Positions 2,521 to 62,910 of a stretch of DNA of 64,000 nucleotides are shown in pieces; the first letter of the stretch is position 1, and each line of letters opens with the position of its first letter. Source of the stretch: Octopus vulgaris. Its lineage: Eukaryota. Position numbers and translations under genes: made by a program. Where the stretch lies: positions 38,130,001 through 38,194,000 of the forward strand of contig OX597839.1 of NCBI GenBank assembly GCA_951406725.2. Direction: 5' to 3'. The notes beneath the pieces are model-generated. The model worked only from the letters and a program-made list of their open reading frames with translations, made no database searches and was not told the DNA's origin.

Positions 2521-2568
<48 letters not shown>

Positions 2569-2601
2569 TTTATTTAAAAGCAGCAGAAAATTCAACAAAA
2601 C

Positions 2602-2639
2602 CTGTTACTCTGAGTTTCACGTTTCCGTTCGTCGGACAG
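2602..2639 (-). ncRNA. Type-I hammerhead-like motif, U4C core
   Basis: Minus strand: cugu CCGACGA ACG-GAAA-CGU GAAA CUC-A-GAG UA acag; stem I extended by a 25-bp perfect IR (2568-2592/2653-2677). Confidence 0.6.
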
Positions 2640-2920
2640 TTTTTGCTAGCAAAATTTTCTGCTGCTTTTAAATAAAGCATATTACTCTACCACTGGTATT
2701 TGAGTACTCTTTTTTCCACCTTGTTTCACATTTACGTGTTTACTCCGGTATATATATATATATATATATATAAGTAGTTGAATGAGTTGTCTTAGTATGG
2801 ATAATTCGGTTAACCGATACCTGGGTAGCAAATTCACGTCAGAAAAACACGGCTGAAGCTACATGCCAAGGGCAGAGATCACGTGCTTTCGTGTGGAAAT
2901 TTGTGTGTTTTTTAATACAA

Positions 2921-3002
2921 ATAAATGAAAGAATGGAGTTGAACGACGATTTAACAAAATTCCCAGGAATTTTGTTAAATCGTCGTTCAACTCCATTCTT
3001 TC

Positions 3003-3008
<6 letters not shown>
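2921..3008. repeat. Perfect palindrome, 43-bp arms, 2-nt spacer
   Basis: 2921-2963 is the exact reverse complement of 2966-3008. Confidence 0.95.
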
Positions 3009-3125: not shown

Positions 3126-3460
3126 ATTATATAATTAGGGCTTAGTAAAATAAAATAAATTACTTTGCCACATACTGAACTTAGTAGAAATAGCAGCCAA
3201 AAAAAAATTTTTTAGCCGTTTCTACAACTTAAAGAAAATTTCTCTCAGATAATGTTTACTCCAGACAGCTCACGAAGGTTTGGAGGTAAATACAGAAAAA
3301 TATCTTACCTCCAAACCTTCGTGAGCTGTCTGGAGTAAACATTATCTGAGAGAAATTTTCTTTAAGTAGTAGAAACGGCTAAAAAATATTTTTTTGGCTG
3401 CTATTTCTACTAAGTTCAGTATGTGGCAAAGTAATTTATTTTATTTTACTAAGCCCTAAT

Positions 3461-5011: not shown

Positions 5012-5174
5012 GCTGAACACACCAGCGCACCAGAAACGCTGGCAGGAAGTCATGCAGTCCATTGAAAAAACCGGTACCTATGACCTCACCAAAACTGAGC
5101 TGACCTTTGGCGCTAAAACAGCTTGGAGAAACGCTCCCCGATGCATTGGTCGGATTCAGTGGTCAAAACTACAG
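5012..5174 (+). CDS. NOS: NOS coding exon 3: heme-ligating Cys
   Basis: cag|G...CAG|gtaagc, 163 nt; [34 protein letters not shown]. Confidence 0.98.
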
Positions 5175-5257
5175 GTAAGCGACACAAATACTAACAACTG
5201 CAGTGAACCGAGGGTCTTGTGAACACATTGTCGTCGGAAAAGAAAGTTGTTCTCCGG

Positions 5258-5508: not shown

Positions 5509-5543
5509 GTTTCCGACGAAGAGCTCCGCTCGAAACGTTAAAC
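5509..5543 (+). ncRNA. Minimal type-I hammerhead-like motif, U4C core
   Basis: guuu CCGACGA A GAGC-ucc-GCUC GAAA CG UU aaac. Confidence 0.55.
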
Positions 5544-13880: not shown

Positions 13881-14739
13881 GGGTGACCCAAAAGTCACTG
13901 ATGGGTTTCAATTTTTAATAACTTCCTTAACTTTACAAATAAACGCATGAAATGTTGATACAATATAAAGGACATAATGGAAATTAATATGTATGAGTCA
14001 AATTTTGCAACACCACTACATTACATATAAAAAAATGACATTGCTTAAATGGCAGCCATTTTCGGCTTCACATACCCATGCTCTTTCCAAAACATGTACC
14101 ATAACACCCTCAAGAGTTTCAGACCCCGCTTCTCTGATTTCTCTATTGATGTTCTCCTTCAGCTGCGCCAGGGTCTCCAGTTTGTTGACATAAACCCTCT
14201 CTTCCAGGTATCCCCACGAGAAAAAATCTGGTCTTGTCAAGTCTGGGGAATGTGAAGGCCAGTTGACATTGCTGTAGCGGGAGATTATTCTCTCTCCAAA
14301 GCAGTGCTGTAGAAACCGCATTGTTTCTCCTGCAGTATGAGCAGTTGCCCCATCTTGGTGGAACCATGTGTGAGGTCTACTTTGAATGGCCAGACGCAAA
14401 AGGTTCTCAATCATGGTTCTGTACCGTTCTCCAGTCACTGTGAGAGCATTTCCGTCTTCCTACTCAGAGAAATAAGGACAGATAATTTCATCTTCTGTCA
14501 ATCCACACCACACCGTGAACCATACGTTGGTATACTGTTCTCGGTTTCCCAGAGCGCCCAAAACGGCAATTTTGTTTGTTGACGAACCCATTCAAATGAA
14601 AATCTGAAAACGAGAGAAAAGGTTAAATAATTAATTTCCATAATGTCCTTTGTATTGTATCAAAATTTCATACATTTATTTGTAAAGTTAAGGAAGTTAT
14701 TAGAAATTGTAATTCATCAGTGACTTTTGGGACACCATG
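13879..14739 (-). mobile_element. Internally deleted Tc1/mariner transposon, DD41D (rosa) group
   Basis: ~110-bp imperfect TIRs (cagggtgacccaaaagtcactgatg... / ...catcagtgacttttgggacaccatg|TA); minus-strand transposase fragment WFHQDGATAH...WPSHSPDLTRPDFFSWG with 41 residues between the last two catalytic Asp; upstream FHLNGFVNKQNCRFW is frameshifted. Confidence 0.92.
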
Positions 14740-23815: not shown

Positions 23816-24487
23816 TGTAAAATGATAAACAACACACACTTACAATTAACAATTAACGATTAACAATTAACAAAGGCTTTATTTATTGAATAGAGTGTGT
23901 TCTGTGTTGGTCTTTAGATGAAGAATGAAACGACAATTCGTACTCACCGGGAGAGACAAACTCTGGTCCGTATCAATCTGTGACTAGTCCGAGTATAACT
24001 TGGGAAATATCGCACTAAATTCATAACGGCAAATCTCTATCTTCATCTCTACATCTTGAGAACGAAAGAAATTAGAATCGAGTTGTTGAAACAACTCCAT
24101 TCTCATTCTCAAGTTACCGCCAAAAATTTGCTTAAGTCTTCTGTCCCACCGGGTCATGAAGAGGCCGGCCACATCTTCAGCTACACCGACACCAACGGCT
24201 GCATCTTGAACCTGCATGCGTTATTTTTTTTTATTAAACTATACTATTTGGTTCTCCTATGTGGTTTTTACACTGGCCCCTATTGCATGTGCAATCATTT
24301 CTATCACCTGATTCTCAAGTTACCGCCAAAAATCTACCTTTTATAAAACTCATTAGAAGGTTCTAGAAAGTCGAATCACATGGTGGCTTGATACTGATTG
24401 ATCACTTAATCGACCGATGACGTGAAACGATGTTCTAAGTGTGGCGTCCGCACGGCTGTCCGGCGATTCGGTTTCGAATTCGTTACA
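23816..24487 (-). mobile_element. Possible solo/relic LTR
   Basis: Ends TGTAA...TTACA; on the minus strand a TATAAAA (~24340) precedes AATAAA (~23885); no target-site duplication found. Confidence 0.3.
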
Positions 24488-62492: not shown

Positions 62493-62559
<67 letters not shown>

Positions 62560-62672
62560 AAAAGGAGATGTGGAACACGAGTTGTGATATATAAAAAAAA
62601 GAAATGAAGAAATGCTGACAAAATAATTTAAGTAAGGGAGAGTGTATTAATTATTGAGTTCGTTGCCATTGT

Positions 62673-62799
62673 TTGCTTATCAAAAGATATATTTTTAAAG
62701 AGATAGATTCCTTCGATAGATTTTTTCTCTTATCTGAGAAAAGAGAAAAAATCTATCAGAAGGAACTCTATCTCTTTTAAAAATATCTTTGATAAGCAA
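62673..62799. repeat. Imperfect hairpin (~58-bp arms)
   Basis: ttgcttatcaaa...gatagattttttctctt / aagagaaaaaatctatc...tttgataagcaa. Confidence 0.85.
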
Positions 62800-62868
62800 C
62801 AAAGAACGAAGAACTTCACTAATTAAATACACTCTCCACTTAAATTATTTTGTCAGCATTTTCATTTC

Positions 62869-62910
<42 letters not shown>

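Follow-up and report, generated by a model that had tools for sequence, protein, structure and literature searches.

A hammerhead ribozyme motif in an intron of an octopus nitric oxide synthase (NOS) gene is a member of a high-copy repeat family in which core position 4 is C (C4) throughout. It is a type I hammerhead, and the family likely represents the 3' terminus of a Penelope-like element of the Hydra clade; we consider it fairly probable that the ribozyme is, as predicted, a slowed, dimer-dependent self-cleaver. The window (the whole 64-kb stretch of DNA that was analysed) is AT-rich, microsatellite-laden animal DNA. A domain search placed the NOS gene on its plus strand, with a PDZ domain in the frame spanning 99-1337 and an exon for NO_synthase at 5043-5177. 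The hammerhead lies in the intron between these two, on the minus strand and antisense to the gene, within an insertion of 181 bp that sits between two (TA)n runs (Table 1). Since the gene is on the opposite strand, the host pre-mRNA would carry the complement of the hammerhead, and the motif at this locus is likely inert. The NOS-intron insertion and its long hairpin are in themselves ordinary. No further copies of the C4 element were found in the 64-kb window. A 147-residue frame at 14016-14459 (-) reads like a remnant of a Tc1/mariner transposase; it gave no Pfam match at E 0.001.

Table 1. Coordinates of the features in the window (a dot marks features listed without a strand).
Feature	Position	Strand	Remarks
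PDZ-bearing (neuronal-type) nitric oxide synthase gene	75-1391, 5043-5177 and later exons	+	domain matches
(TA)22 target microsatellite adjoining first terminus of element	2524..2567	.	
Left arm of 25-bp inverted repeat, the 3' end of the forward copy	2568..2592	.	
Forward copy, 5'-truncated 3' end of element	2568..2645	-	whole hammerhead and 38 nt beyond predicted cut
Stem I, 5' strand	2639-2636	-	4 Watson-Crick pairs with 2605-2602, then A.G mismatch and more pairs
Catalytic core C3-C4-G5-A6-C7-G8-A9 (CCGACGA)	2635-2629	-	C4 = 2634, N7 = 2631
Stem II	2628-2626/2621-2619	-	closed by GAAA loop 2625-2622; 2 constant pairs and variable outer pair
G12-A13-A14-A15.1 (GAAA)	2618-2615	-	
Palindromic stem III, 9 nt	2615-2607	-	free central base 2611
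Predicted cleavage site after A17 (GUA; H17 = 2606)	between 2606 and 2605	-	hammerhead numbering
Perfect 14-nt palindrome at head-to-head junction	2641..2654	.	~7 nt untraced to family
Inverted second copy, more deeply truncated	2653..2748	+	right arm 2653-2677 and tail
One-sided tail, 71 nt	2678..2748	+	bulged hairpin 2683-2706
(TA)12 target microsatellite adjoining second terminus	2749..2772	.	
Fold-back insertions of different families, by (TA)n or (TAA)n	2924-3005, 3134-3460, 35964-36449, 47523-47626, 51915-52297, 54132-54415, 54838-54934, 62556-62872		mostly one-sided tail of 39-151 nt
Second C4 hammerhead, other family, single copy	5509..5543	+	minimal type, between (TA)n runs, sense to host intron
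A6U minimal hammerhead family, core CUGU[A/U]GA, ending on (TA)n	17040-16860 (-), 28500-28305 (-), 51410-51590 (+), 54780-54570 (-), 56025-56200 (+)		5 copies in all; second fixed non-canonical core in genome
Third motif, hammerhead-like core (54877-54883) and stem II	54838..54934	-	within its own inverted duplication

The motif at 2602-2639 (-) is a real type I hammerhead with an open stem I. Set against the canonical core (CUGANGA / GAAA / UH) it deviates at position 4, which is C and not U, and every other core position fits. The minus-strand hammerhead, CCGACGA core, GNRA-capped stem II and GUA site (2606/2605) of the preliminary description were thus borne out from the sequence, cleavage at that site being a prediction. 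A strict descriptor, composed after the motif had been seen, allowed at most one core mismatch and required at least 4 Watson-Crick pairs in stem I, at least 3 in stem II and a fully palindromic stem III; it matched two places (2635 on the minus and 5513 on the plus strand), whereas 30 block shuffles averaged 0.03 matches. Rfam at gathering score gave no matches in the 64 kb.

Folding did not agree with the earlier claim that all three helices form. When a 110-mer was folded as a monomer, stem I pairs had probabilities of 0.60-0.98, those of stem II 0.42-0.43 and those of stem III 0.10-0.12, and the active fold lay 1 kcal/mol above the minimum. The energy of the 110-mer (-42.2 kcal/mol, z -7.7) is owed nearly entirely to the 25-bp repeat. 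The palindrome of stem III was predicted at -7.4 kcal/mol between two molecules versus +2.1 as a hairpin; the model places three helices around the core, but stem III solely as an intermolecular palindrome, and so predicts that stem III requires a dimer. For two short monomers the lowest-energy fold differed from the active dimer. These energies leave out the tertiary energy of the core. Stem II has 2-3 bp as a whole and 2 bp in its constant part.

The hammerhead stretch was found, whole or in part, in 22 of 24 listed sequencing runs. The four largest runs with different organism labels (X1, X3, X5 and X9, from three studies) were aligned to the window with cut-offs of 80% likeness and 3% for variants, the contigs being of DNA type and no RNA set being among the listed ones. 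Contigs aligned in numbers befitting a high-copy repeat (12,772, 4,244, 4,269 and 2,060, respectively). C4 made up more than 97% of family depth in each run, and U4 never reached 3%. A G>A variant at or above 3% occurred at exactly one place per run, 2631 (position 7), and not at 2634 (4/4 runs). Position 7 was U in 12, 30, 30 and 41% of depth in the same order of runs, these shares, like all those given here, being depth-weighted over short contigs. The base at 2624 in the GNRA loop was G or C in 96-98% of depth (GGAA 35-52%, GCAA 46-63%); the loop was GNRA in all alleles, and the GAAA of the window is a rare private one (about 2-4% of depth). Position 11.1 (2619) was G in 17-26% and A in 16-40%, and not U in 38-59%, whilst the palindrome centre (2611) varied in 5-13%.

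Within 2602-2639, then, 4 of 38 sites were variable (2631, 2624, 2619 and 2611) and 34 were invariant at 3%. Three of the four fall on positions that the hammerhead model leaves free, namely N7, the N of GNRA and the palindrome centre (p 0.002-0.009, assuming 4-6 free positions and with the free set picked after the fact). No variant reached 3% at G5, A6, G8, A9, G12, A13, A14, the 15.1-16.1 pair, H17 or stem I, and no compensatory pair changes were found in the hammerhead stems at this threshold in the four runs. Sequence constraint therefore follows the hammerhead fold.

Since U4 stayed below 3% in all four runs while free positions varied, C4 is the state of a propagating family and not decay. 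The preliminary description had preferred a tolerated variant to random decay, and had proposed that position 4 be tabulated across copies; run for this C4 family only, the tabulation gave a consensus of C and not U, and C4 is not sporadic. The support that had been drawn from recurrence of the core in three sequence contexts fails, the motif at 5513 being a single copy with U4/A6U relatives and that at 54883 doubtful. That C4 might have arisen as a mutation private to one decayed copy of a U4 family is the least credible of the explanations weighed here. This copy does hold one private change, the loop base at 2624, but the lack of U4 at 3% in 4/4 runs contradicts such an origin unless alignment bias hid a U4 majority. 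Since depth over the core was no more than 14-28% of the family peak, U4 subfamilies that had diverged could have escaped alignment, and a variant 7 nt from the point where the window departs from the family may be undercounted.

Simple decay of CpG cytosines runs from C to U, and not from U to C. C4 and C7 both precede G, so decay would make them U; position 7 has changed in some lineages and position 4 has not. This difference is suggestive of selection for C4, but is not proof of it, since 34 of the 38 sites are invariant anyway.

In the NOS intron, two truncated copies of the 3' end meet head to head, one ending at the inner terminus and the other extended by a 71-nt tail. The perfect 25-bp inverted repeat described previously is present (arms 2568-2592 and 2653-2677, complementary at 25/25 positions), but what had been called a 25-bp extension of stem I is an inverted second copy of the 3' end of the element. 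We base this on three results: a collapse of depth at the junction, the sense orientation of the tail-side segment in normal copies, and a second terminus on (TA)n. Family sequence parts from the window beyond 2641-2643, and depth has a trough at 2645-2651, amounting at 2650 to 0.46-0.87% of the family peak (4 runs). The 3' half of the hammerhead stands directly before 2656 (+ strand) in 73, 64, 63 and 49 contigs of the four runs, so that normal copies run in one direction from the hammerhead through the 2656-2748 segment to (TA)n; ordinary copies carry this segment once, downstream of the hammerhead. Many family pieces span 2656-2750, whereas no listed piece covers the whole stretch. A terminus equal to that at 2568 adjoins (TA)n in every one of the four runs (84, 26, 20 and 15 contigs), and altogether there are two recurrent (TA)n-adjoining termini, 71 nt apart and lying 38 and 109 nt downstream of the cut site. 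The same inverted form with other breakpoints was seen among the joints (15 of 60 joints listed).

The 25-bp repeat is therefore likely a by-product of how this copy inserted, and not a ribozyme feature. That selection lengthened stem I in this way, or that the repeat is a MITE terminus, is very improbable. The arms do complement each other without a mismatch and lock stem I in the fold, but few copies have the junction, as its depth shows, and other copies break elsewhere. A MITE was also rejected on the ground that the repeat is not terminal, 71 nt lying outside one arm, and that the arrangement is rare in the family. The neighboring microsatellites are placed much as described before, (TA)22 adjoining 2568 and (TA)12 standing 71 nt past the second arm, but on the ribozyme strand the adjoining run is downstream and not upstream. 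A depth step at the cut site, or an inverted arm beginning there, would be a genomic trace of cleavage; no such trace is claimed, contigs being unable to show ends and the arm being traceable only from 2653, ~13-17 nt beyond the position that matches the cut. Within the tail, the bulged hairpin at 2683-2706 (+) is a candidate protein-binding or initiation signal; its variable sites lie in the loop (2692, 2694) and the bulge (2701).

Nine fold-back insertions were picked by hand in the window. In 8/9, a microsatellite lies at most 13 nt from one arm, the other arm being 39-151 nt distant; the remaining insertion adjoins a microsatellite on both sides. Such insertions, whether sense or antisense, would bring long double-stranded stretches into the host pre-mRNA. 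Beside one of them, 35900-35953 is directly repeated at 36322-36375, like a pseudo-LTR.

The repeat probably represents the 3' end of a Penelope-like retroelement of the Hydra clade. It appears to be built like Hydra, an assignment that draws on RNA build and target, whereas the clade itself is defined by protein features (RWK, DKT, a CxCX5C linker, no CCHH) and reverse transcriptase (RT) phylogeny. The traits that it shares with Penelope-like elements are a hammerhead near the 3' end, interspersed high-copy repetition, an inverted 5'-truncated copy and a one-sided tail. Its Hydra-type traits are insertion in (TA)n and, by eye, an acNN-N-NNgt palindrome with loose 10.1/11.1 positions; (TA)n insertion is common to Hydra, Naiad and Neptune, and so is not diagnostic. 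A full Penelope-like element would have an ORF for a telomerase-like RT and a GIY-YIG endonuclease. No Hydra-type protein motif was found in the 64-kb window, and short probes of the family core and ends matched no consensus in the supplement of PMC8557442, where line breaks can hide matches.

That paper (Craig et al. 2021, PMC8557442) allowed a closer comparison. File S2 holds 26 hammerhead rows from 25 of 27 Hydra-clade families, with U4 in 26/26 rows, the search behind it having used canonical descriptors; the actc-N-gagt palindrome stands in 5/26 rows, a GNRA loop in 5/26 and unpaired U/U at 10.1/11.1 in 14/26. File S1 enters 26/27 families as inserting in (TA)n, and inverted 5'-truncated copies with a one-sided tail of 30-40 bp are given as typical of Penelope-like elements. 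The nearest hammerheads are those of Hydra-2_aMil, Hydra-2_aJap and Penelope-3_HM. Hydra-2_aMil has the same stem I, palindrome and A17 as the C4 family, and downstream of the Hydra-2_Amil hammerhead is a bulged hairpin that by eye resembles 2683-2706. Hydra-clade hammerheads are likewise of type I, with a palindromic stem III that has one free centre, a short and often GNRA-capped stem II, loose 10.1/11.1 positions, a place near the 3' end, (TA)n insertion and inverted 5'-truncated copies. They differ in having U4, a stem II of 3-7 bp in all 26 rows against a constant 2 bp here, and a tail of 30-40 against 71 nt, and no ORF is linked to the family described here. Hydra-1_Obim, the sole octopus Hydra family published there, has a different hammerhead, with U4.

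The metazoan Penelope-like hammerheads of Cervera and de la Pena 2014 (PMC4209133), with a minimal or palindromic helix III, are similar in their dimer-dependent stem III, their lack of canonical tertiary loops and their low expected activity, and their elements are mostly solitary truncated copies. They differ in a U4 consensus and a reported core covariant, U3-A8. The supplement passages searched, one file lying outside the search, hold no CCGA core.

Alternatively, the family could be non-autonomous, like a retrozyme or SINE, and use the enzyme of a Hydra-type element rather than consist of truncated autonomous copies, although this seems to us unlikely; it would alter the element class only, leaving the ribozyme and inversion readings unaffected. 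The very high copy number without a visible ORF favors it, as do the two or more different upstream sequences that join the hammerhead (at 2641 and 2643), and animal retrozymes have been reported as derivatives of Penelope-like pLTRs. The locus, however, has no tandem monomers. The copy there stands alone, is inverted and bears a tail, in the manner of truncated Penelope-like copies, and no back-going joints occurred among the 15 of 60 joints listed. The shortness of the family contigs confines this reading of tandem arrangement to the locus. Animal non-LTR retrozymes (Cervera and de la Pena 2020, PMC7229834; bioRxiv 10.64898/2026.07.22.740005) are also high-copy, non-coding and provided with a type I hammerhead, but form tandem 170-400-nt monomers with canonical cores.

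For the likely Hydra-clade element, we propose that its protein would nick the (TA)n run and that two cDNAs would start from the two nicked strands, the use of two initiation sites leaving one end with a tail and one without. Both cDNAs would then stop early and join head to head, giving the 25-bp repeat by a twin-cDNA route that we infer. A similar course has been described for PAc, a Poseidon element of the green anole (Frangieh et al. 2024, PMC11167929), in which the tail is defined by two initiation sites, and cutting and extension take place on both strands of AT-rich DNA. Unprocessed RNA is the main substrate there, cleavage is assisted by and needs protein, and insertion has no need of cleavage. 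PAc is of another clade, with a canonical core and a hammerhead that overlaps the ORF start.

With both termini of the octopus element downstream of the cut site, cDNA synthesis has to pass it, and as the forward copy spans the cut site, its template was presumably uncut. If reverse transcription starts downstream of the hammerhead and has to cross it, fast cleavage would cost the element; a slow ribozyme would suit an element that needs such read-through. Monomers may stay uncut by means of the palindromic stem III that needs a second copy, a U-turn weakened by C4, and a C4-dependent hairpin between core and stem II. Slow cleavage could still be allowed in tandem transcripts or with the protein of the element bound. 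We incline slightly towards a ribozyme that is slowed but alive.

In the folding model, C4 makes pairing possible between C3-C4-G5 and the beginning of stem II. For 18 allele backgrounds, which were folded by a nearest-neighbour model only and with alleles combined unphased, the probability of stem II was 0.75-0.99 with U4 versus 0.01-0.94 with C4, and that of the competing hairpin 0.00-0.01 versus 0.01-0.96. Stem II stayed at or above 0.79 with C4 in 4/18 backgrounds, those having U at 11.1 plus either U7 or a GCAA loop. A stronger form of the proposal, that C4 was actively selected and the hammerhead tuned down for read-through, with a weaker U-turn and a hairpin that holds it off until protein or a second copy refolds it, is put forward only tentatively.

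It is rather unlikely, but deserves weight, that the ribozyme is catalytically dead, a U4C founder having been amplified with cleavage dispensable and the fold kept as a binding site for the protein of the element. The predicted misfolding of stem II by C4 agrees with this, and so do hammerhead mutants that leave insertion in vitro unimpaired (PMC11167929), Naiad elements that thrive without canonical hammerheads, and the second family in the window with A6 replaced by U in 5/5 copies. A dead ribozyme fits less well with core positions and a stem I that are free of variants at 3% while free positions vary, and with a natural U4C that keeps function in a viroid (second-hand, in PMC3088659). Less probable again is full compensation of C4, for instance by a contact of the GNRA loop with a stem I bulge, in a ribozyme of normal speed with an alternative core. 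The constant GNRA type of the loop would allow this, loose ends at 2641 and 2656 suggest a stem I of 6 bp, a 3-nt bulge and 5 more pairs (by eye, in one subfamily), and compensation of this kind is proposed for core variants in PMC3088659. Against it, stem II is only 2-3 bp long, stem III depends on a partner molecule, the folds predict competition with stem II from C4, and the Penelope-type hammerheads tested so far were slow according to PMC4209133. A slowed, dimer-dependent ribozyme is the reading that we prefer.

Nearly all hammerhead searches take U4 to be invariant, and U4C has rarely been met in nature. The viroid with a U4C hammerhead (that of Ambros and Flores 1998) is reportedly peach latent mosaic viroid. 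Lunse et al. 2017 is said to hold dimeric Penelope-associated hammerhead variants, in alignments that may include C4 cases. Perreault et al. 2011 (PMC3088659), in the passage that cites Ambros and Flores 1998, states that U4C considerably lowers activity in vitro yet supports viroid infectivity. That hammerhead is comparable in having a natural core change that is slower in vitro and sufficient in vivo, but is a single variant of an RNA replicon with tertiary loop contacts, and not fixed in a DNA repeat family. A recent virome survey (PMC13481778) used the descriptor CYGANGA, so that Y was allowed at position 4. No transposon (Penelope-type) family fixed for C4 was found in the literature and supplements searched, a search outside which Lunse et al. 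2017, Repbase and Dfam lay. Natural U4C is thus already known from a viroid, whilst a eukaryotic transposon family fixed for C4 is apparently new.

The C4-fixed family, with several sub-lineages and four organism labels, is a natural experiment on the role of hammerheads in Penelope-like elements. A C4 ribozyme that is slow but alive would speak for the view that a mostly non-cutting ribozyme is what these elements need, and a dead one would mean that the fold is kept for protein binding. The family also implies that such motifs are undercounted in animal genomes. If C4 was indeed selected, large classes of such ribozymes would be invisible to CUGANGA-based searches, and reports of Penelope-like clades without hammerheads would need re-examination.

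Each hammerhead-like family in the window has a non-canonical core (C4 or U6), and a descriptor survey of the 64 kb found no complete hammerhead with a canonical core. The CCGACGA 7-mer was seen 5 times against 1.63 expected, a count reached in 2/100 shuffles. It does occur in the two other motifs named in the preliminary description (5513-5519 on the plus and 54877-54883 on the minus strand), but only the former is complete, and it stands also at 5231-5237 (-) and 38934-38940 (-), without hammerhead context. The motif at 5509-5543 has an extra A after A9, a 4-bp stem II and an ACGT palindrome, forms no monomer stem III, and closely fits the minimal consensus of PMC4209133. Five relatives of it in the window, with 72-74% likeness over the aligned parts, have U4, and U for A6, in 5/5. 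Naiad 3' ends were considered for these two families and rejected, short probes being unmatched in the Naiad consensus file. The motif at 54883 has stem II and GAAAC, but its stem I is unclosed, with C3/C4 in the loop of the inversion junction, and it is doubtful as a third C4 example. At 24414-24440 (+), CCGAUGA is followed after 3 nt by GAAAC, which looks like a C4 core without stem II; no stem I was found there.

A metagenome scan for C4 hammerheads with the same stem I returned 10 loci (GC 0.47-0.58), none from the C4 family, and 8/10 look like chance. Two sediment metagenome contigs with the same sequence (L002:2985-3055 and L005) have no convincing stem II, but show an extended, bulged stem I pairing and may hold a prokaryotic type I C4 hammerhead.
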